Made by a program: the position numbers and the translations under genes
Source: a phage
Strand: one strand, 5' to 3'
Length of the DNA: 64,000 nucleotides
Sequence record: PZ338878.1
Part shown: positions 5,899 through 16,918 of the stretch, one piece after another
Position numbering within the stretch: the first letter of the stretch is position 1
Layout: each line of letters starts with the position of its first letter
The notes under the pieces: generated by a model
What the model was told of the DNA's origin: nothing
The model's database searches: none
The model's input: the letters and a program-made list of their open reading frames with translations, nothing else

Positions 5899-6408
5899 TT
5901 AGCGATAGAATTGATGTTCTTTGTAGCGGTACACTAGAACCATATCTTTTTCCCAGTGTGCTCTTATTGTAGATTTTTTAAAGTATAATGCTCCTTTTGT
6001 AATATCTAATGCAATTCGTAATTCTGGAAAATGGTTATCGAGATAAAGTAGACGTTCTGCTATAGCTTTAGCGTCTTTCCACTTATCGTGTTCCATAACG
6101 TTGAATGTCTTCGTGTAAGAGAATTGTCCTTTTTGAAACAAAACTTCTTTTATAGTATCAGGGAAATATGAATCTCTCGCCCTATTCAATACTACATTAC
6201 CAACAGCAGACATACCGCGCTTTCCTTGATTACGACTTTCTGCATAGATTGCACAAGCTAATAGATTTTCTTTACTATCACGCTTTGTACACTTGTGAAC
6301 TACTTTAGCAGTTTTTACGTTTGCAGCTTCGGCTTGCGCCACAACAGGTGTAAATGTAAAAGCAGTTAAGGATAGTAACGCAATTGCGACAAAGGTTTTT
6401 ATTGACAA
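5899..6408 (-). CDS. secreted cell-wall hydrolase, SleB/CwlJ-like; candidate endolysin
   Basis: 169 aa; signal-peptide-like N-terminus MSIKTFVAIALLSLTAFTFTPVVAQA; LACAIYAESRNQGKRGMSAVGNVVLNRA matches the SleB-type hydrolase motif. Confidence 0.55.
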   Translation of the reverse strand: MSIKTFVAIALLSLTAFTFTPVVAQAEAANVKTAKVVHKCTKRDSKENLLACAIYAESRNQGKRGMSAVGNVVLNRARDSYFPDTIKEVLFQKGQFSYTKTFNVMEHDKWKDAKAIAERLLYLDNHFPELRIALDITKGALYFKKSTIRAHWEKDMVLVYRYKEHQFYR

Positions 6409-6500: not shown

Positions 6501-7103
6501 TTAGATATTGTAAACCTTTGTATGAGTTACTACACCATCTTCTACAAAATCAATACGTTCTTGATCCGTAACTAGTGCAGACAACACTTTAAATTTAATT
6601 TTTACACGTTCAAAAGCTGGTTGACCATCTTTAAGATAATTATGTTCAGTTGTCACTGTCTTGTTTACAAAATCAACTTTTGCTTTACCGTTCTCGCGTA
6701 AGTGGAATGTTTTTCCTGCTTTATACACAATTTCAACATTACCTTCGAGAGTAATTCCTTCAAAAAGTTCACCCTCTTCTTCATTTTCTTCACTTTTGAA
6801 CAGACGACGAAACTCTTCCATATCAAGATAAACAACATCTTCAGAATAACTATCAGTAAGATATGTCTTACCCTCCATTAACCCGAAATATTGCCAGATT
6901 GCCGAATAAACATCACTAGATGATCCAAGGGTTTCTCTGAGTTTAGTTCCACGGATTACTTCATAAACTTCAAAATTGAAACCAGACTGCAAAGCATCAA
7001 ACAGCACATCACTAACTTCTAAAGCATAATCTTCATTGTTGTCAATATCTACAAGAAAATTGCCGCTACGAATAAGTTTTTGACCTTCTAAAGTAATACT
7101 CAT
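6501..7103 (-). CDS. hypothetical protein (200 aa, acidic)
   Basis: ORF track; SD AAGAGGAG upstream; no motif. Confidence 0.45.
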   Translation of the reverse strand: MSITLEGQKLIRSGNFLVDIDNNEDYALEVSDVLFDALQSGFNFEVYEVIRGTKLRETLGSSSDVYSAIWQYFGLMEGKTYLTDSYSEDVVYLDMEEFRRLFKSEENEEEGELFEGITLEGNVEIVYKAGKTFHLRENGKAKVDFVNKTVTTEHNYLKDGQPAFERVKIKFKVLSALVTDQERIDFVEDGVVTHTKVYNI

Positions 7104-7120
7104 TGTTTTCTCCTCTTTTA

Positions 7121-7146
7121 TTTCAAATATGCGCCCCGAAGGGCGC
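7121..7146 (-). terminator. putative intrinsic terminator or attenuator after TerD gene
   Basis: GC hairpin gcgccc-cgaa-gggcgc followed on the minus strand by a U-rich stretch, then the SD of the next gene. Confidence 0.35.
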
Positions 7147-7167
7147 TATGATTTATTACTTGATGTA

Positions 7168-7764
7168 TTACTCGAACCAATCGTCGCCAGCGCCAAACGC
7201 TTTAACTACATCGTAAATGTCAAGCCCAGCTTTACCTACACCATATGCTTTCAGTTTCCATTCGCTATCTTCTCGCACCAGGGAGGCAACGTGGCAAATG
7301 GTGTTACCTGCAAGTTCTGGAGCCAAGAAGTCAAAGTCCAGCAGTTCAACATTACGTTCATCATCGAAGATTTTAAGGAAACCTTCGGTAGCGTGACCAA
7401 GGCGTTTCTTACCCGTTTCGTCATCAATAGTAATTACGAATGCAATTTCCTGTGCTTCAGCAGAGATATTATCCAGTGTAACATCAATCTGCTCCATCTG
7501 TCCTACACCATCACGAACATCTTCACCTGCAAAAGTAGAACGTTCAGGATCAAATTTCTGTGCGTAGCACACCAGGTGACGAGGAGACAACAGTTCCGGC
7601 AGACCAGATGCATTGTGTCGGCAAATCAGAGCACTAACATCCAGATCCAGTTTTTCGTTAGATTTCCAAGAGAATTCCAGACGAATGCGTTTCAGTGCTG
7701 GTGCGATCTTTTTCAGAGAAACTTTTTCGCTAGAACCTTTTTTCAGGGAAATTTTCTGAGTCAT
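7168..7764 (-). CDS. TerD-family protein
   Basis: 198 aa; DLDVSALICR, GEDVRDGVGQMEQIDVTL, ITIDDETGKK, LVREDSEWKLKAYGVG are canonical TerD-domain motifs; SD AAGGAG. Confidence 0.8.
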   Translation of the reverse strand: MTQKISLKKGSSEKVSLKKIAPALKRIRLEFSWKSNEKLDLDVSALICRHNASGLPELLSPRHLVCYAQKFDPERSTFAGEDVRDGVGQMEQIDVTLDNISAEAQEIAFVITIDDETGKKRLGHATEGFLKIFDDERNVELLDFDFLAPELAGNTICHVASLVREDSEWKLKAYGVGKAGLDIYDVVKAFGAGDDWFE

Positions 7765-7837
7765 AATTTATTATCTCCTTTGTTGTTAATTTACGTTGTC
7801 TATTTTACTAATCTTTTCTACAAAGTCAAGCGTTTTT

Positions 7838-8632
7838 TTACGCTTTTGCTCCGAATTTTTTAACCCACTCACCAAACTCTTCAGATAACAATTTATCGTA
7901 AAGTTCTTCATCAGACAAGGACAAATCTGCAATACCGATAAAATCAACATTATCGTACTCTTTTGCCAAGTCTTTCAGGAATTTAAAGTTTGCATTACCT
8001 ACACCAACCATAAACCAGTAAACAGGCGTATTGCGGTGTTTGTTCAGTAAGCTACGTACTGCTGAAGTATCCATGTTTTCCCCGTCAGTTTGGAAGAAAA
8101 TCATTGCAGGAGTACGATCAACTTGTGCATCAGTATCTACAACCTGTTCTACAACAGTACGTGTTACTTCTACAAGTTCTTTTTTACCAGTTAGTTTAGC
8201 AAGGAAACCCTTAGCTGGGACTTCTTCATACTCAACGACTTCGCGTGTAATATTTTTCATAGGTACACTACCGAAGTATGTATCATAGATCTCCTGCATT
8301 ACTGGAGCATAAGCAGTACCACCATTGATGCAAACATTAGACATGCAAGAGCCGACATAATCATCATACACATCAGCCGTTGCAGGAGGCAGTTCAAAAG
8401 AAGAACTATTGAAAGCCCACATGTCAATCTGTGCATTGTCATCAAACTTCATACCAAACGGCAGCAGTTTACCTACAAAATCACTAACAGTGCCATCACG
8501 ATACAGCTCACACATACTACCCGAAATATCTAAGGCGCTACCGACACGAAGAACAACATCGTTAATCTTTTTCTTACGCAGAGATACAGTAAGAGTTTCT
8601 TGACGTTTTTTAAGACTGATTTTATTGGACAT
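7838..8632 (-). CDS. von Willebrand factor A (vWA) domain protein, TerY/TerF-like
   Basis: 264 aa; MIDAS motif DISGSM, then GGT, FFQTDGE, MVGVG; N-terminus ISLKKRQETLTVSLRKK echoes the TerD N-terminus ISLKKGSSEKVSLKK. Confidence 0.6.
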   Translation of the reverse strand: MSNKISLKKRQETLTVSLRKKKINDVVLRVGSALDISGSMCELYRDGTVSDFVGKLLPFGMKFDDNAQIDMWAFNSSSFELPPATADVYDDYVGSCMSNVCINGGTAYAPVMQEIYDTYFGSVPMKNITREVVEYEEVPAKGFLAKLTGKKELVEVTRTVVEQVVDTDAQVDRTPAMIFFQTDGENMDTSAVRSLLNKHRNTPVYWFMVGVGNANFKFLKDLAKEYDNVDFIGIADLSLSDEELYDKLLSEEFGEWVKKFGAKA

Positions 8633-8633
8633 A

Positions 8634-8903
8634 TTATTTCTCCTTTCTGAGTGTAATGTTAGTAACTTCTAAATCCACTTCTACCATTTCTGTATCATAT
8701 GAAATACAGCTAAGTTGACCTCTTTGTGAACCGTTCAGACACATTGCTTGGTTTGTATTAACTTTAATAAACACTAAGTTTCTGAACGTATCTAAACCAG
8801 AATCTTGATACGCAACATAATATACGAATGTATCACCTGCGTCAAGTTCTCCAAAACATTTAGGTTCATCTGATTTATCGTCTTTGATATTAAATTTAAG
8901 CAC
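8634..8903 (-). CDS. hypothetical protein (89 aa)
   Basis: ORF track; no motif. Confidence 0.4.
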   Translation of the reverse strand: MLKFNIKDDKSDEPKCFGELDAGDTFVYYVAYQDSGLDTFRNLVFIKVNTNQAMCLNGSQRGQLSCISYDTEMVEVDLEVTNITLRKEK

Positions 8904-9459
8904 TGTCTTCTCCTTTACCTGCCCTCCAGCCTAAATAGAAAGCCTCTCTGGTGATCTTTTGCAACTCGTTTAAAGAGATAGTTACAACTAAATTATCTTC
9001 AATTTCTAGCTTTGAGTCTTCTTCTGTCTCAATGCAAGTATTATGCACTTTGTGGTAAGGATTGTCAACACGTTTAAATTTATTATTTTCAGTGCTGAAG
9101 AAGCAATCTGGATCTTCTTCTCCATCACCCCAACCCTGGTTAGGGTCTTCTTCAGATCTTTCTGTTGGGATCTCACCTGTAAAGTGCTCTTCTAATACCA
9201 TAGCGATACCATCTCCAAGATCGGAAGAGAACATCAAATTACAAACTTCTTCCCAAGGCATAGACCACTTAAATCTTTTACGATTACCATGTTTATCTTC
9301 TTCGTTAGAGAAAACACTACCATAGCTATCATAATTGCCATACATCTCTTCAACAACTTTACCACCTTTCAAAAGAAATAGGTAGCAAGGAGAACCATCG
9401 AAAGAGGTAGAAAGAGCAGCATTGCCAGACTCTTTGCACAAGAAACTAAAACACCCCAT
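8896..9459 (-). CDS. hypothetical protein (187 aa, acidic)
   Basis: ORF track; no motif. Confidence 0.4.
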   Translation of the reverse strand: MGCFSFLCKESGNAALSTSFDGSPCYLFLLKGGKVVEEMYGNYDSYGSVFSNEEDKHGNRKRFKWSMPWEEVCNLMFSSDLGDGIAMVLEEHFTGEIPTERSEEDPNQGWGDGEEDPDCFFSTENNKFKRVDNPYHKVHNTCIETEEDSKLEIEDNLVVTISLNELQKITREAFYLGWRAGKGEDSA

Positions 9460-9659
9460 TATACACCAGCCTTAAGATCAATTAAAGCCAAAGTTGTTTC
9501 AGAATGTGTTTGCTCGTCTACAGGTGCAGTCATATGATAATACAAAAAGTCTTCGGCATCATACCAATCTGATTCTTGACCTTGTTTCCAACCATCAATG
9601 AAAGCATCCTCCATAATGGTTTGTAATTCTTCACGAGTTAAGTGAATATCTTTATTCAT
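9459..9659 (-). CDS. hypothetical protein (66 aa)
   Basis: ORF track; no motif. Confidence 0.35.
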   Translation of the reverse strand: MNKDIHLTREELQTIMEDAFIDGWKQGQESDWYDAEDFLYYHMTAPVDEQTHSETTLALIDLKAGV

Positions 9660-9865
9660 TACACATTCTCCTCTTTTACCAATTCCATCGTTGAACTATC
9701 AAAACCATCTTTAGAAGAATAGGTATAGACAGAACGTAGTTCTCGCAGGACAGTAAATACATTAGGATCATCTAACCAAGCATCCTGGAGGAGAACATAA
9801 CGATCTTCATTGTCATACTGGACAGCAATCATAGAACCAGACAGTTTGTAAATTTTAATATTCAT
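9659..9865 (-). CDS. hypothetical protein (68 aa)
   Basis: Track ORF 9659..9892 trimmed in frame to ATG at 9865, preceded by AAGGAG. Confidence 0.4.
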   Translation of the reverse strand: MNIKIYKLSGSMIAVQYDNEDRYVLLQDAWLDDPNVFTVLRELRSVYTYSSKDGFDSSTMELVKEENV

Positions 9866-9878
9866 AATATATTTCTCC

Positions 9879-10982
9879 TTAAAGTAGACCACGTTTAACA
9901 GTTTGAATCATACCATCTTCAAGAGATTGCACTTCTTGAATGTAATCAATACGAGCAGCACGGGCTTCAGTGTTGATTCGGTTAGTTTCTTCCAACATTT
10001 TAACTAAGTTTTCTTGATCGCGACGTAATGTTTCAATATCCAATACTTGACGATTAGCAAGTTGCGTAGCTTCAATTTGGTTTTGTGCAGCCAGATCACT
10101 ACCCATTGCAATAGCAGCATTAAATTCATTCAGTACATTGTTCTGTGTATCGGCTGCTTTCTTCTGGCGTAGACTTTCAATATACATAGAAAAGTTTGCA
10201 GAGTAAGCAGGAATAACATTATTCACAATATTACGGGCTGATCGCATCAAACTTGCAGATACTTTCTGCATACTTTGTACACGTGGCCCCATCTGAACAC
10301 ACAGTAAACGCAAGGCTTTCAGGTCTGCAATACGAATTTCAAGCAGATCCATAGTATCACGAGTACGTTGACGCTCTTCTACTTCATTTTCAGGTAGTGT
10401 ATTAAGGCGAACTTCTTCTTTTTCATAAGTAGCTGTTAGAAGCTCTATATCCCTGTTTAAGCTAAGAGCATATTTTGCAATAGCCTCTTCTAAACGTTGC
10501 AGATATCGTAAAGAATCTTCTTCTTTTTTCAAGTCTGTTTGGAGTGTCTTTACCAAACCTTCAATACGATTATTGATGGTGTCAAATTCACCAAACAAAT
10601 CTTCTTTCATACCTAATACTTTCTTAACTAGTTTACCTAAGCCTTTAGATTGTTTAATAGAATTAGGATCAAGTTGCTTTGCTTGCTTAATAAGTGCAGT
10701 TAAACGCTCACTCATTTCATCTCCCTGAGATGAACGCTGGTGTTTAAGCACTTCCGCATTAAGGTTACGAAGAGTAAGTCCTGCATCAGCACCAACCTGT
10801 TCAATCTCTTCACGAGACATTGGAGGCAGCATTTGTACAGGTCGTGCAACAGCAGGGGCATATACAGGGCTTGCATCCATAGCAGTTGGAGCAAACAAAG
10901 ACTTACTTTTTTCTGTTGTTGCCGTGAATACACTCATTTCAGACGGTTTGCTTTTTACGGCACTGATAAAAGGACTGGACAT
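9879..10982 (-). CDS. TelA-like protein (toxic-anion-resistance / KlaA family)
   Basis: 367 aa; long helical coiled-coil body and N-terminal region resembling TelA; call rests on overall pattern rather than one motif; SD GGAGGA. Confidence 0.5.
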   Translation of the reverse strand: MSSPFISAVKSKPSEMSVFTATTEKSKSLFAPTAMDASPVYAPAVARPVQMLPPMSREEIEQVGADAGLTLRNLNAEVLKHQRSSQGDEMSERLTALIKQAKQLDPNSIKQSKGLGKLVKKVLGMKEDLFGEFDTINNRIEGLVKTLQTDLKKEEDSLRYLQRLEEAIAKYALSLNRDIELLTATYEKEEVRLNTLPENEVEERQRTRDTMDLLEIRIADLKALRLLCVQMGPRVQSMQKVSASLMRSARNIVNNVIPAYSANFSMYIESLRQKKAADTQNNVLNEFNAAIAMGSDLAAQNQIEATQLANRQVLDIETLRRDQENLVKMLEETNRINTEARAARIDYIQEVQSLEDGMIQTVKRGLL

Positions 10983-11050
10983 TCAATTTCCTCCATATTC
11001 TTTAGTAGATGGTGATACCTCTGTACCACCATCATAACACAAATTAAGTA

Positions 11051-11902
11051 TTAAACAAACATATCTAAATAATTTGTAGTAATAAATGCTCCATCTGCTT
11101 CCAGATTAACATAACCAGTAGCATTAGTGGTTAAGAAATCCAGATCGAAGGACTCTTTAACACCCCGTACCTCAACACGAGAGATATCGAATACAGGTAG
11201 TGTAACAGCCTCTTCGTGCAATACCGTACCTTTGTAGGTTGCCTTAATGATAAACTTGATATTACCCGTTCCCGCATCATACAAAACACTTTCAAAGCCT
11301 TTGAGAGTATACTTATCACCAGAGGTGAAGTGCAAAGTTGCTTTGTTTACAGTACGTTTTTTACGAGGAGTTCCTTTCACACGTTTATGATCACTACGTT
11401 TTTTGTATTTAGGAATGAATACAAACGATACACTCTCAAGAAAAGTATCAACATCAAGGATTTTAATATCCTCTGTTGCAGCAAATTTTGAAGTCGTTGC
11501 ATCAAAATGCTTTGCTCTGCGATCATACATAAAGATATCAAACCGATCTTCTAAATCAAACAAATTGTGTATCTTAATTTCAGAATGCTTGCACATTGCA
11601 GCAACCTTAAACTCTTCAAAACGTGGGTGTTCTACAAGCTCTTCAAGTTTTACACCAAAGACAGTATATTGTTTCGAAGTTTTTTCTGGCGTTGGCATTA
11701 CAGAAGCATAATCACCGATTGCGCTTTTAAAGCAAAATTGTTCTTGACCTGTATTTTTACCAACGAATTTACAGTATTCGTCATCGTGCATACTTTCTTT
11801 GGTAGTACCAACAAACTCAAAACCATCTTTATTCTTCTCAAGAATTTCTTGATTAAAGATCCAACCTTCCAGGCGATACACTTTACCAACTTCTAGTTTC
11901 AT
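11051..11902 (-). CDS. hypothetical protein (283 aa)
   Basis: ORF track; no motif. Confidence 0.4.
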   Translation of the reverse strand: MKLEVGKVYRLEGWIFNQEILEKNKDGFEFVGTTKESMHDDEYCKFVGKNTGQEQFCFKSAIGDYASVMPTPEKTSKQYTVFGVKLEELVEHPRFEEFKVAAMCKHSEIKIHNLFDLEDRFDIFMYDRRAKHFDATTSKFAATEDIKILDVDTFLESVSFVFIPKYKKRSDHKRVKGTPRKKRTVNKATLHFTSGDKYTLKGFESVLYDAGTGNIKFIIKATYKGTVLHEEAVTLPVFDISRVEVRGVKESFDLDFLTTNATGYVNLEADGAFITTNYLDMFV

Positions 11903-11937
11903 CTGTTTCTCCTTCTTATTTAATCTGTATTAAATTA

Positions 11938-12528
11938 TTAACGACGACGTGAGCTACTAAAACTACGTTTCGACGAAGAATAACTTTTCGAAGACTTACT
12001 ATAAGAGCTAATAGGGCTTGAGTAAGACTTACGAGCAGAGTAATCACTATTCACTTTTGTTGTTGATGGGCGTGAATACGTTTGTACACTTTGCTGCTTA
12101 ATTGTGTTTTGTTTAGTTGTTGTATATGTATTCCCTTGTTTATCATAAAAACTATGCTTTTGTGTTGTATATGATTTACTGTTAGTTGTAGGAGCAGCGT
12201 TGTTATTAATAATTGTTGTATTGCTACCGCCATCTCTATAACCACCACCGCCACTATTACCACTCAACATATGACCAAGAAGCATACCTGTAGCAAATTC
12301 ACCTACACCAGAAGAACCACTGCCGCCTCCTTGCACAACAACTGTTGAAGGCTGTGCAGGTGCTGCTTGAACAACTTGAGGTGCAGGTTGATTTACATAT
12401 TGTTCATCTACCATCTGATTTGGTGTCTGTTGGTAACGTTGGTTTTGTACATTTTCAGAATCATCACAACCTACCAGCAATGCACTACCTAAAACAACTG
12501 CAACAATAAAAGATTTAATGTTTTTCAT
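11938..12528 (-). CDS. lipoprotein with glycine zipper and low-complexity Ser/Tyr/Lys tail
   Basis: Trimmed in frame to ATG 12528 (MKNIKSF, AGAGGG upstream); lipobox LLVGC; GGGSGSSGVGEFATGMLLGHMLSG. Confidence 0.5.
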   Translation of the reverse strand: MKNIKSFIVAVVLGSALLVGCDDSENVQNQRYQQTPNQMVDEQYVNQPAPQVVQAAPAQPSTVVVQGGGSGSSGVGEFATGMLLGHMLSGNSGGGGYRDGGSNTTIINNNAAPTTNSKSYTTQKHSFYDKQGNTYTTTKQNTIKQQSVQTYSRPSTTKVNSDYSARKSYSSPISSYSKSSKSYSSSKRSFSSSRRR

Positions 12529-12721
12529 TTGTAACCCTCTCATTTAAAGTCTCGACACAATTTTTAAAATCTCTAGAGAAACAATACATCTGTTCTCCGT
12601 TCCTGTTGATAGTAATTGTATGGTTATCAACATATGTTGTCAAGATAAAAATCAAACAAAATAACCCTAAAGCAAAACAAATATTTTCAAACAGAATCCA
12701 AAGAACACGTAAAACCACCAT
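12515..12721 (-). CDS. small hydrophobic protein (68 aa)
   Basis: ORF track; predicted TM segment; weak. Confidence 0.3.
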   Translation of the reverse strand: MVVLRVLWILFENICFALGLFCLIFILTTYVDNHTITINRNGEQMYCFSRDFKNCVETLNERVTNEKH

Positions 12722-12730
12722 CAGATCACC

Positions 12731-12754
12731 TCAATAAAGCCCCCGAAGGGGCTT
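12731..12754 (-). terminator. putative intrinsic terminator after TerC gene
   Basis: GC hairpin aagcccc-cgaa-ggggctt followed by a short U-rich tract on the minus strand. Confidence 0.35.
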
Positions 12755-12760
12755 AATAAA

Positions 12761-13738
12761 TTAAGCAACAGACTGGTCTTCTTTTTCAGGGAAGATTAAA
12801 CTTGCAATAACACCCAGCCCCAGAGTACCTAACACAATATACATACTGATCGTCGGATCAATGTGTGCTGGCAGGAAACTCACTTTTGCGTGCAGAGTTT
12901 CTGCAAACGGGTGATACATCAGTTTTACACCCACAAATACCAGGACTACGATAACTGCTTTCTCCAGATGAACCAAATATTTCAGTGCAACACTAAGGAC
13001 AAAGAACAGAGCACGCAGACCTAAAATTGCACACAGCATTGAAGAAAATACAAGCAGAGGTTCTTGTGTCACTGCAATTACTGCTGGAACAGAGTCTACT
13101 GCAAAAATTACGTCAACCATTTCCATTACAAATACACAAACCAATGCAGGAGTTGCTACACGAACACCATTTTTGATTGTGAAGAACTTCTCACCATCCA
13201 TCTGATCAGATACAGGGAACAGCTTACGAACAATGCGAGTAGCCCAGTGCTTAGAGTAATCAACTTCTGCGTCATTATCTCCAGCAAATACCATTTTAGC
13301 TGCACAGAAAAGGATGACCGCACCGAAGAAGATATTAACATACCAACCCAAACTCAACAAGTAAGTGCCTACTGCTACAAACACACCTCGGAAGACAATC
13401 GCACCTGCAATACCCCAAAGTAGAATCTTGTGTTGCAAGTGTGTGCTTTTAATACCAAAACTTGCGAATACTGCCACAAATACTACTAAGTTATCTACAG
13501 AAAGAGATTTCTCCAACACATACCCACTCAAAAACAAGCTCGCAAAATCAGCACCGTGTTGGAAGTATACAAAACCATAGTAGGCTAACGATACCCCAAT
13601 CCAGAAAATTGACCAGCCAATTGCAGATTTAAATGAAATTTCTTTGTTTTCTCTGTGTCCAAAGAAATCAATACAAATCGACAAGACTAAAATACCCACT
13701 AAAACAACCACATCAATAATTGGGAAACCCAGTTGCAT
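12761..13738 (-). CDS. TerC-family integral membrane protein
   Basis: 325 aa, multi-pass hydrophobic; YVLEKSLSVDNLVVFVAVF is the TerC signature; SD AGAGGAG. Confidence 0.8.
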   Translation of the reverse strand: MQLGFPIIDVVVLVGILVLSICIDFFGHRENKEISFKSAIGWSIFWIGVSLAYYGFVYFQHGADFASLFLSGYVLEKSLSVDNLVVFVAVFASFGIKSTHLQHKILLWGIAGAIVFRGVFVAVGTYLLSLGWYVNIFFGAVILFCAAKMVFAGDNDAEVDYSKHWATRIVRKLFPVSDQMDGEKFFTIKNGVRVATPALVCVFVMEMVDVIFAVDSVPAVIAVTQEPLLVFSSMLCAILGLRALFFVLSVALKYLVHLEKAVIVVLVFVGVKLMYHPFAETLHAKVSFLPAHIDPTISMYIVLGTLGLGVIASLIFPEKEDQSVA

Positions 13739-13757
13739 TCTTTTCTCCTCTTTAATG

Positions 13758-13776
13758 CGGAGGACAATCCTCCGCT
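13758..13776 (-). promoter_or_regulatory. stem-loop in 5-prime UTR of TerC gene
   Basis: gcggagg-acaat-cctccgc perfect 7-bp stem, about 15 nt upstream of the TerC SD. Confidence 0.35.
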
Positions 13777-13815
13777 CTATGTCGTATACTATAAACTGTT
13801 TTTAAAGAAAGTCAA

Positions 13816-14064
13816 CTAGTTCAGTTCTGTAATTTTAAGTTTATCTTCTTTGTTAATGATAGGGAAAGCTACAGCATCACCTACATCATCAATAAAGCAA
13901 ACAGCAAGACCACCTTCCACTTTGCTAACCTGACCATTAAAGGCGTGATACGGGGCAGGAACAATATCTCCATCTTCAAGGAGAATAGCCTCATAAACCT
14001 TACCAATAGTACAATCACGAGTGTTTTTAAATTTTTCAAGCACTTCAACATTTACTTTACGCAT
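13816..14064 (-). CDS. hypothetical protein (82 aa)
   Basis: ORF track; no motif. Confidence 0.4.
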   Translation of the reverse strand: MRKVNVEVLEKFKNTRDCTIGKVYEAILLEDGDIVPAPYHAFNGQVSKVEGGLAVCFIDDVGDAVAFPIINKEDKLKITELN

Positions 14065-14078
14065 ATAAAGATCCTCTC

Positions 14079-14285
14079 TTATTTGTTAGATTGAAAGATA
14101 CCACGAAGTACCGCAAGAATGAACGTCACACAGACTACACTCCAAAACGTTACAGGAACATGATGCCAGTCTAAGCCGATAATGTCAATCATATAGTTGT
14201 ATGCTAAAAGCAGTAGCCAACTAGGGATTAACACAATCAAGAACACAACAATAAAACAACCTAATACTGCTAAAACACCTGCCAT
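14079..14285 (-). CDS. small membrane protein (68 aa)
   Basis: ORF track; two hydrophobic segments. Confidence 0.4.
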   Translation of the reverse strand: MAGVLAVLGCFIVVFLIVLIPSWLLLLAYNYMIDIIGLDWHHVPVTFWSVVCVTFILAVLRGIFQSNK

Positions 14286-14294
14286 ACTTTCTCC

Positions 14295-15011
14295 TTATTT
14301 CAGTTTGTAAACAATTACATTTAAACCTTTGTTCACTAGAGTTTCTTCGATCATAAGTTTTACAATATTCCAAGAACCTCCAGCCAAACCACAACCAAGC
14401 ATTGGTAAACCTACAATTTTACCGCCTGAAGATACAACATCGTCTCCCATACTATCTAACGCATTGTAGATAGCTTCATAATTCAGGTCACGCTTACCTT
14501 CCTCACGACGACTATAACCATATTGTCCATATAAATTATAAATTGTCAAATTGTTTTCTGTATACTTAGTAAACGTACCTAATTTTTTATAATCACCACG
14601 TTTAGTGGCACAATCTGCTTTAAACGCACCAGGCCACTTGCTTTTAATTTTTGGTGCAATACCACTACCCATAGTGCAAAAACAGTTACAGCAGTGTGCT
14701 ATAGCGTCTATATCGCCTCTCTCTGCTGCTGCTAAAAGATCACCGTATACCTCAATGATACCTGGTGGATAACTTGTTACAATTTCATCTTCCCAGTACA
14801 TTTGCTCTACACCACCGATCAGTGCAAAGTTTTGTGTGATGCGATCATCAATATAATTAAGACCTGAAACATACACAGCATATTCATCCTGTGCTGTAAT
14901 GCCTTGTACACGAATTCTTAAGACACCATCTTTATCTGTTGCTACACGCCCAAAATCTTTTTCTGTAATATTGGTGATAGGATCTCCGAAAGTCGTCACT
15001 TTATTAGACAT
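14295..15011 (-). CDS. macro-domain protein, TARG1/DarG-like (putative ADP-ribose hydrolase)
   Basis: Track TTG start replaced by in-frame ATG 15011 (AAGGGG upstream); AIAHCCNCFCTMGSGIAPKIKSKW and GLPMLGCGLAGGSWNIVKLMIEE parallel the TARG1 motifs as recalled (HC...C.MG.GIA and IGCGL...W..V); about 100-aa N-terminal extension of unknown function. Confidence 0.55.
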   Translation of the reverse strand: MSNKVTTFGDPITNITEKDFGRVATDKDGVLRIRVQGITAQDEYAVYVSGLNYIDDRITQNFALIGGVEQMYWEDEIVTSYPPGIIEVYGDLLAAAERGDIDAIAHCCNCFCTMGSGIAPKIKSKWPGAFKADCATKRGDYKKLGTFTKYTENNLTIYNLYGQYGYSRREEGKRDLNYEAIYNALDSMGDDVVSSGGKIVGLPMLGCGLAGGSWNIVKLMIEETLVNKGLNVIVYKLK

Positions 15012-15073
15012 AATAATCCCCTTTAACATTAGATTTGTTGATAATGTTGCTTTCAAAAAATTGACGCAGGAAA

Positions 15074-15862
15074 TCAAAGTTCTCTTTGTATTTTTTCAAT
15101 ATTATTGTAACCTTCTGCAAGGCAACCAAAGAACAGTTGTTCTACATAATACAAAGGAAGTTGTGAAAGTGCAATTTTAAAATCAACTTCGCTTTGACTC
15201 ATTAGATACTTAATAGGACGAACCAAACATTTAGCATCAGTTTCTTGCTTAATCATTTTAATAAAAGCTGCCAAGTTATTGATATAGTTGAAGTTAAGTG
15301 CAGCTTCGGTGTTGGCTTCTGTACCTTCATACTTTGCAAAGTACAGGAAAAACGTATCGTTTTCAACACCTTCTTTGTCTAAAATTTCAATAAGTTTTTC
15401 TTCGTGTGTTCCTGTAATATTAACATCATCAATGAAAATCAGAGTTTTATTACCCCAGAAATCACGATTGATAGAGAAAGTGTCACCATCGATCAAAGCC
15501 TTACGATCTTCTTTGCTAAGAAATCCATAATCATTGATATAACTCACTTTACGATGAACGATATCCCACTCTACTGCTTTACCTCCTTTGATAGAGATTA
15601 GGTAGTTGAGGTGATCTACAAAATGCTCAGATAACACTGTAGCTGCATTTTTCACATAGTTATATGGAGATGGAATAACAACAAAACTTTCATTTGCCAG
15701 TCGTTCTTCATACTTAGAAAAGAAACTTTCAGCCAAAATGCGCCCCATTCTTTTTGCTGCCTGGTTACTACCAAACTTTAGTTTGGAATAATCTGCAATA
15801 TTAAATTTTGCTTCCTTCAGGTTAGTAAAAGTATTAGCAAAATGTTGAATTTGATTACGCAT
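15074..15862 (-). CDS. phosphoribosyltransferase (type I PRTase) domain protein
   Basis: 262 aa; TLIFIDDVNITGTHEEKL is the PRPP-binding signature; SD AGAGGAA. Confidence 0.55.
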   Translation of the reverse strand: MRNQIQHFANTFTNLKEAKFNIADYSKLKFGSNQAAKRMGRILAESFFSKYEERLANESFVVIPSPYNYVKNAATVLSEHFVDHLNYLISIKGGKAVEWDIVHRKVSYINDYGFLSKEDRKALIDGDTFSINRDFWGNKTLIFIDDVNITGTHEEKLIEILDKEGVENDTFFLYFAKYEGTEANTEAALNFNYINNLAAFIKMIKQETDAKCLVRPIKYLMSQSEVDFKIALSQLPLYYVEQLFFGCLAEGYNNIEKIQREL

Positions 15863-16511
15863 TAATAAGTTCCTCTTTTTTAAGTTTAGCCAACAAGTCT
15901 TCTGGATTAATAATATGACAGAACTTCATCCCTATGTCAACAGCTTTTCCATCATAAATCAAACTATCTCCAACGTGTAAAATCTCCTCTGGTGCGAGAT
16001 CAAACGTTACCATTTCATCAAAAGAGAGTTTAAAAAACCTAGGATCTGGTTTACACAAGCAAAACTCATCAGAAAAATGCATAAAGTCAAATGGTAATTT
16101 TGTTAAGCCAGAATATACAGCTAAGAAACTACCTGGTACAAAATTAGTATTGCTCTTAATACTCAAAGAATAGATTGAACTCAGCTCTTCCAATTTCTTG
16201 CAAAGCTCAGGGTTCAATATTGGAGGATGTTTTATAAACATTGCTAAACAGTCTCTTTTTAACCCATCCACTTTATCAAGATCAATGTTCAAACGAGTAG
16301 AAAGTGTTTCCCAAGCATTCCTAGACGTTCCACAAATGCCTTTTTCTGCTTTTAAATCCAGGAGAGTTTTTACCTCTTTATATACGGTAGCTGCTTCTGC
16401 CTCAGAACAAGAGGCATACTCGGCAATAACCTTGTTGCGTTCTTCTGCATACAAAGGATTAGCAGTAATAAGAGTATTCCATACATCAAAAGAAATATGC
16501 TTAACAGTCAT
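15855..16511 (-). CDS. HAD-superfamily hydrolase (haloacid dehalogenase-like)
   Basis: Trimmed in frame to ATG 16511 (MTVKH, GGAGGA upstream); motif I ISFDVWNTL near the N-terminus, C-terminal GDSLIYDGKAVD. Confidence 0.5.
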   Translation of the reverse strand: MTVKHISFDVWNTLITANPLYAEERNKVIAEYASCSEAEAATVYKEVKTLLDLKAEKGICGTSRNAWETLSTRLNIDLDKVDGLKRDCLAMFIKHPPILNPELCKKLEELSSIYSLSIKSNTNFVPGSFLAVYSGLTKLPFDFMHFSDEFCLCKPDPRFFKLSFDEMVTFDLAPEEILHVGDSLIYDGKAVDIGMKFCHIINPEDLLAKLKKEELINA

Positions 16512-16513
16512 TT

Positions 16514-16669
16514 TTAATCCTCCGTCCAAAAGAATATCATCTGCTTAATTTTATTGATCTCTTGATGTAGTAACTTTCCAGCATGTGATTGATCTTTAAT
16601 ATTGACAGCAAGAATTTCAAGCTCCGTTAGTTTTTCCTGAATAGCTTTATATTCATCATCTGTAAGCAT
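16514..16669 (-). CDS. hypothetical small protein (51 aa)
   Basis: Manual translation MLTDDEYKAIQEKLTELEILAVNIKDQ...; AGGGGAAG upstream; its stop overlaps the SD of the HAD gene. Confidence 0.3.
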   Translation of the reverse strand: MLTDDEYKAIQEKLTELEILAVNIKDQSHAGKLLHQEINKIKQMIFFWTED

Positions 16670-16680
16670 TTTCTTCCCCT

Positions 16681-16872
16681 TTAGAATGGTAATCTTTGTA
16701 TGTCACTTATCCCCACACCCAGAAGTCTAGCAATATCCTTATCTAAAAGCAACTCTTTTTGTTCTAAAATGTTAATCAAATCTCCTAATACTTCTTTAAT
16801 GTCACGATCATTTTTAGCAACGTGACCACCTGCGGTATCAACTTTATCTTTAAAAACAAAATAATGATCCAT
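16681..16872 (-). CDS. hypothetical protein (63 aa), possible helix-turn-helix
   Basis: Trimmed to ATG 16872 (MDHYF, GGAGGG upstream); the first track ATG sits immediately after a terminator. Confidence 0.35.
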   Translation of the reverse strand: MDHYFVFKDKVDTAGGHVAKNDRDIKEVLGDLINILEQKELLLDKDIARLLGVGISDIQRLPF

Positions 16873-16884
16873 AATACCCTCCAT

Positions 16885-16909
16885 ATAAATAAAGGAGGCT
16901 TTCGCCTCC
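16885..16909 (-). terminator. intrinsic terminator after ATPase gene
   Basis: ggaggc-tttc-gcctcc hairpin followed by UUUAUUU on the minus strand. Confidence 0.55.
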
Positions 16910-16918
16910 TTTTATCAC

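Follow-up and report, generated by a model that had tools for sequence, protein, structure and literature searches.

Why would a virulent phage carry genes of the bacterial Ter stress network side by side with a phosphoribosyltransferase (PRTase) and a hydrolase of the haloacid dehalogenase (HAD) superfamily? The question is raised by a block of co-oriented genes in sequence record PZ338878.1, a stretch of 64,000 nucleotides of phage DNA analysed here as a whole and referred to as the window. The block occupies the minus strand from about 7,130 to 16,890 (a cluster of ~9.7 kb), and all open reading frames (ORFs) of the interval originally flagged lie on that strand. An initial annotation had named eight genes there, encoding a TerD-domain protein, a vWA protein, a TelA-like protein, a lipoprotein, a TerC-family membrane protein, a macrodomain protein, a type I PRTase and a HAD hydrolase; all eight are present where it had placed them (Table 1). 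Profile hidden Markov model searches bear out the domain assignments, with seven ORFs scoring above the curated Pfam thresholds, and a lipobox (LVGC) supports the lipoprotein. The presence of four Ter-family proteins and of a Ter-linked PRTase family within 9.4 kb, each with an expectation value (E) below 1e-27, is far beyond chance. The block is probably, although with real reservations, a phage version of the bacterial and plasmid Ter network of stress response and phage inhibition, whose parts act as one composite mechanism.

Ter Proteins of the Block

The TerD-domain protein aligns with the TerD of Klebsiella (PDB 2kxt) with an E of 8.6e-15. The canonical Ca2+-binding motifs of TerD used for comparison are DxD and GDN(R/L)TG(E/A)GDGDDE; the former is kept as DLD, and GDNRTGEGDGDDE reads GED-VRDGVGQME, three acidic positions being changed to V, Q and M. 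In the neighbouring vWA protein, the metal ion-dependent adhesion site (MIDAS) D35-x-S-x-S39 is intact (DISGS, residues 35-39). Its N-terminus had been said to echo TerD; the likeness is real but small, 11 of 20 positions matching when its first 20 residues are compared with the first 19 of TerD (pairwise E 0.011). The TelA-like protein belongs to phrog_5890, annotated as “tellurite resistance”.

TerC, a protein with multiple hydrophobic spans, reaches 322.8 bits against the NCBIfam model TIGR03718 (TerC/Alx; cut-off 246.4) and is 46-47% identical to terC of plasmid ter operons over 98-99% of its length. Its capture from a host alx gene was considered and rejected, the identity to E. coli K-12 Alx being 37% versus 46-47% to plasmid terC. 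Control of TerC by a yybP-ykoY riboswitch, as for host alx, was likewise discarded as no Rfam family was found: a search of the whole window at gathering thresholds gave no match, and the sole sub-threshold match between 6 and 19 kb is an unrelated chance match. Of the terZABCDEF gene set, the block has TerC, a single TerD-domain protein and a TerF-like vWA protein and nothing more; it is thus an abbreviated Ter set and not a terZABCDEF operon.

The HAD-PRTase_3 Pair

The PRTase belongs to the Pfam family PRTase_3. Its loop for phosphoribosyl pyrophosphate (PRPP), IFIDDVNITGTHEE, is intact and invariant in 61 homologues; it consists of an acidic pair followed by T-G-T/H, set on a PRTase fold, and the AlphaFold model of the protein is confident (predicted local distance difference test, pLDDT, 91.7). 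A sequence search of the PDB gave no meaningful match, and a fold search was therefore made; the closest solved relative that it returned is ComFC of H. pylori (PDB 7p0h). The phage protein is a ComF-like PRTase of type I that carries an additional helical region at its C-terminus. The two differ considerably, since only 143 of 262 residues superpose, with 13% identity, and since the phage enzyme has a distinct C-terminal helical region and a HAD partner whereas the partner of ComFC is the ComFA helicase. Apart from DarG for the macrodomain gene, the PADLOC models of known defence systems gave only a non-significant PRTase_III-A match.

In canonical HAD phosphatases, the Asp two positions after the nucleophile (Asp+2) acts as general acid/base. 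Motif I of the phage HAD protein reads D-V-W-N-T: the nucleophile Asp is kept, an invariant Trp stands at Asp+2, and the canonical phosphatase motif DxDx(T/V) with its acid/base is thus absent. Motifs II-IV are kept, and D15, V16, W17, T19, S126, N127, K160, D188 and D193 are invariant in 6 phage homologues. NCBIfam matches (HAD-IA, REG-2-like and dehalogenase-type) all fall below their cut-offs. The Trp is found without exception (D-V/L-W-N/G/K-T) in the HAD partner of PRTase_3, in the window as well as in loci L002-L006, L027 and L028; the bacterial partners with this motif read FDVWNTL in Rhizobium and LDLWGTL in Hymenobacter, and the P. horikoshii structural-genomics protein PDB 2om6 has the same FDVWNTL motif as the phage HAD. 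These residues suggest that the D-x-W proteins form a distinct HAD subfamily, whose chemistry may differ from that of ordinary phosphatases.

Homologues of the PRTase occur in 157 phage records and in 308 protein clusters. In every locus examined (~20 distinct, plasmids included), a HAD gene lies immediately upstream of PRTase_3; these loci comprise the Xanthomonas jumbo phage XaC1, Rhizobium phage TM61, Caulobacter phage CcrColossus, Brevundimonas phage Kikimora, the metagenomic contigs L007-L009 and L014-L023, the Rhizobium plasmid pRL10 and a Hymenobacter plasmid. HAD-PRTase_3 is an invariant two-gene cassette, the closest detected homologues of which are mostly on phage-size or phage-like contigs.

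Five unrelated contig types have Ter genes at no more than 7 kb from the pair, in differing arrangements: TerC-x-TerD-x-vWA-HAD-PRT in L007 and L020, TelA-vWA...HAD-PRT-TerD in L014, TerC-vWA-TerD-TerD-HAD-PRT in L017, and TerD-TerD-HAD-PRT in L023. On the plasmid of Hymenobacter monticola, genes for three TerD proteins, two vWA proteins, a PP2C phosphatase, an InaA-type kinase and a membrane protein of the DUF475 family run divergently to the pair. Because the linkage recurs with shuffled gene order, it supports a functional coupling of HAD-PRTase_3 to TerD and vWA proteins, a coupling that Aravind's group had predicted. The link between Ter genes and a PRTase-HAD module that the initial annotation had drawn from the literature is thereby upheld: the PRTase matches PRTase_3, and the pair is found near Ter genes in unrelated phages and on the Hymenobacter plasmid. 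Adjacency of the genes is not a fixed part of this link: in the Caulobacter, Brevundimonas and XaC1 phages, a TerD gene lies elsewhere in the genome, far from the pair.

Two side observations concern these loci. In the Hymenobacter locus, a TerY-P-like set is combined with HAD-PRTase_3. Contigs of T4-like and jumbo phages have the pair next to a DUF2828/DUF7788 protein of 467-531 residues (Table 1) that displays weak vWA similarity only (VWA_CoxE, E 0.025) and may replace the TerF-type vWA partner.

The Macrodomain Protein

HAD, PRTase and macrodomain genes had initially been described as an enzyme trio. The macrodomain protein matches DarG in PADLOC (E 1.3e-13) and, among solved structures, the macrodomains SCO6735 and BT1257 and that of human TARG1 (PDB 5e3b, 2fg1 and 2afc at E ~6e-15; TARG1 at E 5e-10). 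Against the NCBIfam DarG model NF048014, the match (E 7e-13) covers positions 4-147 of 338 and scores 48.6 bits where the cut-off is 250; this score and a Gln in place of the Lys set it apart from the DarG antitoxin of DarTG2. The Lys that is catalytic in TARG1 and DarG is a Gln within “YGQYG”, the TARG1 Asp is an Ala, and the DarT-binding C-terminal domain is lacking; the aligned segments read “YGQYGYSRREEGKR” against “IGQHGMKTGSKG”. Overall similarity, the Gln at the position of TARG1 K84 and an extended basic loop place the protein in the SCO6735/BT1257 ALC1-like subclass. Gln85 of SCO6735 is essential, and this enzyme strips thymidine in DNA of the ADP-ribose that DarT attaches (PMC9411070); the phage protein shares with SCO6735 the Gln at that position and the long basic loop that follows. 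The macrodomain of phage PhiKZ, AdfM (gp104), was shown to counter DarTG2 (PMC13309987) and, like SCO6735, removes DarT2-made ADP-ribose from thymidine in DNA; it differs from the protein of the block by an identity of only 24% (pairwise E 0.003).

The phage records with a macrodomain homologue number 2,969 and come from many families; only 69 of these records have the N-terminal extension of ~85-100 residues seen here, an extension confined to Justusliebigvirus. The gene adjoins the pair only in the Stephanstirmvirinae. Outside this subfamily, it lies near the pair in 2 of ~15 sampled lineage types, at a distance of 7-8 kb, which is about chance level. Because of this distribution (2,969 records versus 157 for the PRTase), the absence of conserved linkage outside the subfamily and the eraser class to which its residues assign it, the macrodomain protein is most likely an independent ADP-ribose eraser and a separate counter-defence gene. 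On these grounds of distribution and linkage, its place as third member of a trio was rejected; HAD and PRTase form a pair, and the macrodomain gene is better taken as an unrelated eraser beside it.

Conservation and Distribution

The carrier is a phi92-like virulent E. coli myophage of the genus Justusliebigvirus, the window sharing 99.6% identity with deposited genomes. Over the 10-kb interval, the identity is 99.6% with Escherichia phage EC.P2 and 97-99% with ~55 deposited phi92-like genomes; by megablast, at least 80% of the block is covered in 55 records, and 54 of the 122 matching records are 95-99% identical. The BASEL phage PaulScherrer, a virulent ~150-kb myophage of E. coli K-12 (Stephanstirmvirinae, Justusliebigvirus), is 97.6% identical. 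The block is carried by all phi92/phAPEC8-like virulent myophages.

A synteny comparison with relatives was part of the initial proposal, and it shows the order of the block to be conserved across both genera of the Stephanstirmvirinae. In ESCO13 (Phapecoctavirus), the order NrdG, HAD, PRTase, macro, TerC, TelA, vWA, TerD and cell-wall hydrolase is that of the window, with identities of 81% for TerD, 78% for TelA, 71% for TerC, 67% for vWA, 66% for PRTase, 49% for macro and 48% for HAD; the small ORFs between the main genes vary. The same gene order recurs in three IMG/VR clades (L011, L012 and L024). Across these and ESCO13, protein identity ranges from 48 to 81%, and for TerC up to 94% in L024. 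Beyond close relatives, ~77 further records hold diverged TerD, TelA and PRTase. Counted singly, TelA is found in 246 phage records, TerC in 177, PRTase in 157 and TerD in 148, with differing host spectra.

Some Phapecoctavirus genomes encode a TerC that is 93-95% identical, yet their PRTase (66%) and TelA (78%) are diverged; others have the 71% TerC. These identities suggest that TerC alone was exchanged by recombination between the genera. Four unannotated “Campylobacter phage” records (MG065639, MG065645, MG065656 and MG065689; host given as C. jejuni) are 98% identical to the E. coli phage block, and their host attribution looks doubtful.

Relation to Known Ter Systems

Phage Ter systems with a PRTase and a HAD were described by Iyer, Anantharaman, Krishnan, Burroughs and Aravind in 2021 (Viruses 13:63, PMC7824862), who proposed superinfection exclusion as their role. 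In their account, Acinetobacter phage vB_AbaM_ME3 has a “relatively complete” version that includes PRTase and HAD, and the operons of Caulobacter jumbo phages are abbreviated ones of the TerD/TerC/TerF/TelA kind; they also extended Ter systems to “certain other related smaller tailed phages”. The present block resembles these systems, and ME3 by its description, in combining TerD, TerC, a TerF-type vWA protein, TelA, PRTase and HAD in a virulent tailed phage. It differs in its carriers, a subfamily of ~148-kb non-jumbo E. coli phages not individually named in that work; in the Caulobacter phages, furthermore, HAD-PRTase is ~28 kb from TerD and not adjacent to it. Several ter genes in a row (terC/terD/terF/telA) are also present in the virulent Pseudomonas myophage phiPsa374, the authors calling their role in infection unknown (bioRxiv 10.1101/2022.06.10.495718). 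The TelA of phiPsa374 is a distant homologue (22% identical), and no phiPsa374-like record is among the PRTase_3 tblastn matches listed (50 of 157 records).

The likeness to bacterial and plasmid ter loci (terZABCDEF, IncHI2-type) lies in TerC and in the alignment of TerD with Klebsiella TerD, and that to the wider bacterial Ter network in the HAD-PRTase_3 pair, which on the Hymenobacter plasmid stands beside TerD, vWA, PP2C, kinase and DUF475 genes. In contrast to both, the phage block has one TerD-domain protein and not the TerA/TerZ/TerE paralogue set, and TerB, ATP-grasp, C-C lyase and TerY-P were not found. Anantharaman, Iyer and Aravind reportedly linked the bacterial Ter network to a PRTase-HAD module in 2012 and predicted a nucleoside-like product. 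To our knowledge, phenotypes of resistance to tellurite, colicins and phages are known only for the plasmid ter operon.

The cluster itself is already known. Its genes are labelled in deposited relatives as “tellurite resistance”, “TerC”, “putative (orotate) phosphoribosyltransferase”, “phosphatase/HAD-like” and “putative macrodomain protein”; gp172, gp173 and gp178 of phi92 were given as TerD/tellurite-resistance genes in a metagenome paper of 2015, and the phage Ter and PRTase/HAD combination was interpreted in 2021. The initial view that such an association is unusual in a lytic phage does not hold, as it is conserved throughout the Stephanstirmvirinae, appears in GenBank labels and was published in 2021 and 2022; Ter genes are found in many other phage lineages too. 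Both functions suggested at the outset, a membrane stress or signalling system and a metabolite pathway, are already published hypotheses.

Organization and Surroundings of the Block

Table 1. Features of the block and its flanks in the window, and loci in other sequences
Sequence	Feature	Coordinates	Strand	Basis or remark
Window	SleB-type cell-wall hydrolase	5899-6408	-	Pfam Hydrolase_2, E 7e-20; N-terminal signal-like sequence
Window	200-aa protein	6501-7103	-	inside the interval first flagged
Window	GC-rich hairpin GCGCCC-TTCG-GGGCGC (coding strand)	7131-7146	-	21 nt after TerD stop codon
Window	TerD-domain protein	7168-7764	-	Pfam TerD (PF02342), E 5e-28; 98 bits, cut-off 25
Window	TerF-type vWA protein	7838-8632	-	Pfam vWA-TerF-like (PF10138), E 1.2e-38
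Window	Small ORF	8634-8903	-	overlaps upstream 8896-9459; ends 1 nt before vWA start; 64% in ESCO13
Window	187-aa protein	8896-9459	-	member of a widespread unannotated phage protein family
Window	Two small ORFs	9659-9892 and 9459-9659	-	start/stop codons overlap TelA and next gene; no Pfam match
Window	TelA-like protein, full length	9879-10982	-	Pfam TelA (PF05816), E 5e-34; profile positions 13-330 of 332
Window	283-aa protein	11051-11902	-	phrog_27504; partial match in ESCO13
Window	Predicted lipoprotein, 201 aa	11938-12543	-	signal peptide; lipobox LVGC at residues 23-26; phrog_21570
Window	Small protein, one predicted membrane span	12515-12721	-	hydropathy; homologue in ESCO13
Window	TerC-family integral membrane protein	12761-13738	-	Pfam TerC, E 1.2e-38
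Window	Small ORF	13816-14064	-	no Pfam match
Window	Small protein, two predicted membrane spans	14079-14285	-	hydropathy; 60% identical ESCO13 homologue
Window	Macrodomain protein	14295-15077	-	Pfam Macro, E 3e-7
Window	Type I phosphoribosyltransferase, PRTase_3 “PRTase ComF-like”	15074-15862	-	Pfam PF15610, E 1.6e-38
Window	HAD-superfamily hydrolase	15855-16529	-	Pfam Hydrolase (PF00702), E 9e-6; 26.6 bits, cut-off 26.4
Window	Terminator-like hairpin AAAGGAGGC-GAAA-GCCTCCTTT, then ATTTAT	16891-16912	-	consensus match only; just after AAA-ATPase gene
Window	AAA-type ATPase, 386 aa	16919-18079	-	Pfam AAA, E 1e-6
L002	DUF2828/DUF7788 protein	10941-12527		directly after PRTase
L008	DUF2828/DUF7788 protein	10967-12562		directly after PRTase
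L009	DUF2828/DUF7788 protein	7152-8555		~0.8 kb upstream of HAD
L028 (Hymenobacter monticola plasmid NZ_CP094537.1)	HAD-PRTase_3 locus	65169-83825

Two stable tetraloop hairpins, with UUCG and GAAA loops on the coding strand, lie exactly at both ends of the block, and no hairpin of comparable quality is found within it; the one at 16891-16912 is a possible upstream boundary, and the one at 7131-7146 a possible downstream boundary, of a transcription unit. Successive ORFs from TelA through vWA all either overlap or directly adjoin one another. The macrodomain and HAD ORFs extend to TTG codons at 15077 and 16529, respectively, with ATG codons at 15011 and 16511, those chosen in the initial annotation, equally possible as starts.

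Several proteins between the Ter genes have no assigned family. The 187-aa protein was considered as a hidden Ter component and rejected, its family occurring in non-Ter contexts; its structure model is confident and no structural relative was found. The 283-aa protein, conserved only in part between the genera, gave no significant match in Pfam, NCBIfam or PADLOC, only chance-level ones to Cas12g (E 0.003-0.005). The mature part of the predicted lipoprotein is of low complexity and rich in Gly, Ser, Thr and Gln, and the small protein with two predicted membrane spans is kept beside TerC in both genera. At the TerD end, the 200-aa protein is probably outside the conserved unit: it has a 30%-identical homologue at the same position in the IMG/VR clade L012 and is absent from Phapecoctavirus, where the cell-wall hydrolase directly follows TerD.

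The surroundings agree with what had been stated initially, that replication and glycosyltransferase genes are close by: in the annotation of PaulScherrer, the genes downstream of TerD include those for DNA polymerase, primase/helicase and four glycosyltransferases, and NrdD/NrdG are encoded on the other side, upstream of HAD. The AAA-type ATPase between NrdG and the block is present in Justusliebigvirus and in the IMG/VR clades L011 and L012; ESCO13 lacks it and has a different ORF of 201 aa in its place. The SleB-type hydrolase, just outside the block, is labelled endolysin in ESCO13, and a homologue also follows HAD-PRTase in contig L017.

Proposed Mechanism and Alternative Explanations

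The mechanism proposed here starts from the parts, their conservation and their neighbourhood links, and follows in its inferred steps the schemes of PMC7824862 and PMC5512222. The PRTase would join PRPP to a base-like acceptor, yielding a ribonucleotide that the HAD protein would turn into a nucleoside-like product; this product and/or Ca2+ would be sensed by TerD and the vWA protein. In the infected cell, envelope or ion properties would then be altered by TelA from beneath the membrane and by TerC, the small membrane proteins and the lipoprotein from within it. As to purpose, the exclusion of superinfecting phages or colicins, or stabilization of the envelope until lysis, would be most plausible. 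The macrodomain protein would act on DNA or protein as an eraser of the SCO6735 class and DarT2 type, stripping off ADP-ribose. A bolder version, which we put forward tentatively and hold to be possible rather than expected, is that the virulent phage encodes its own small-molecule signalling, in which the ComF-like PRTase and the D-x-W HAD would make a non-canonical nucleoside-like compound in the course of infection, TerD and vWA proteins would sense it, and TelA and TerC would remodel the envelope against rival phages or colicins.

A number of observations weigh against the block being such a composite system. ComFC, the closest solved relative of the PRTase, serves DNA uptake and not nucleotide synthesis; the step of dephosphorylation to a nucleoside is insecure because the HAD protein is without the Asp+2 general acid; and the Ca2+-binding motif of TerD is partly degenerate. 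No Pfam or PADLOC match to TerB, TerA/Z, ATP-grasp or C-C lyase, nor to the TerY-phosphatase-kinase set (no TerY-P in PADLOC), was obtained among the block ORFs scanned, a scan that left out ORFs 12515-12721, 16514-16669 and 16681-16884 and did not take the rest of the 64-kb window protein by protein. No Ter gene lies within 10 kb of the pair in the Rhizobium, Caulobacter and Brevundimonas phages, on pRL10 or in contigs L015, L016, L018 and L019. Ter components also occur singly in many phages: TerC is present in ~75-kb podophage-size genomes and in ~90-kb Proteus/Pectobacterium phages, which are not among the sampled TelA, TerD and PRTase matches (no genome-by-genome check was made), and TelA is present in rak2-like jumbo phages. 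A promoter and terminator scan gave no excess of sites over shuffled sequence; it was rejected as operon evidence, the counts equalling those of the shuffles, and a single transcription unit is for that reason only inferred. Lastly, product, sensor and phenotype alike are predictions, and experimental work on any phage Ter cluster or on PRTase_3 was not found in the literature.

An alternative is a row of independently acting auxiliary genes brought together by shared early/middle expression and by inheritance in one subfamily, an explanation that we consider unlikely although it is the most serious competitor. TerC would then work by itself as a metal-ion exporter (Mn2+/Ca2+-type) adjusting ion balance, a role in keeping with its place in the TerC/Alx metal-homeostasis subfamily; TelA, TerD and the vWA protein would be separate stress proteins, and HAD-PRTase a separate metabolic pair. 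The Ter parts do spread independently among phages, as their differing record counts and host spectra indicate, the ORFs between the Ter genes differ between genera, and TerC seems to have been exchanged separately (93-95% TerC alongside diverged PRTase and TelA). However, mere co-inheritance would not lead one to expect that the adjacency of the pair and Ter genes recurs, in shuffled order, in unrelated phage contigs and on a Bacteroidota plasmid, which is a classic signature of functional coupling, nor that start and stop codons overlap in succession from TelA through vWA.

Detaching the enzymes from the Ter genes, HAD-PRTase, with or without the macrodomain protein, could be a counter-defence or salvage module that rebuilds or destroys a nucleotide used or targeted by host immunity, the macrodomain protein supplying or removing ADP-ribose. 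The three genes are indeed adjacent in this subfamily, but the macrodomain gene is ~20 times more widespread than the pair and its proximity elsewhere is about at chance level. Phage pathways of NAD+ reconstitution are a known theme, the pair of Rhizobium phage TM61 is one small ORF away from a nicotinamide mononucleotide (NMN) adenylyltransferase/Nudix gene, and in XaC1 and L008 it sits among RNA ligase, Nudix, tRNA nucleotidyltransferase and macrodomain genes; the enzyme at hand, on the other hand, is a ComF-like type I PRTase and not of the nicotinamide/nicotinate type, and a subsequent phosphatase-like step would undo salvage. Such a module, which moreover leaves the linkage to TerD and vWA without explanation, appears quite improbable. 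Even less credence, indeed very little, is given to PRTase and HAD making a precursor for modification of phage DNA or surface glycans in concert with the nearby glycosyltransferases. Four glycosyltransferase/disaccharide-synthase genes and replication genes do lie on the same strand ~1.4-4.5 kb beyond TerD, but a hairpin, one ORF, the cell-wall hydrolase and three small ORFs separate these glycosyltransferases from the block; the pair is also found on bacterial plasmids and in phages devoid of them, and Pfam detects no nucleotide kinase, hydroxymethylase or base-exchange enzyme in the block.

Significance

The role of Ter systems has been unclear since the 1990s, and the nucleoside-like product predicted for them has never been identified. 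The cluster described here adds no new kind of system; its practical value is that of a compact and apparently complete Ter version in phages that are easily grown on E. coli K-12, the relatives of phi92, including the BASEL phages PaulScherrer, EmilieFrey and JohannJBalmer, being tractable carriers. The target is also sharpened, as the invariant unit is the HAD(D-x-W)-PRTase_3 pair and the macrodomain protein is a separate matter. If the bolder proposal of a phage-encoded small-molecule signal were true, HAD-PRTase_3 would be the conserved “writer” of a messenger common to bacterial Ter systems.

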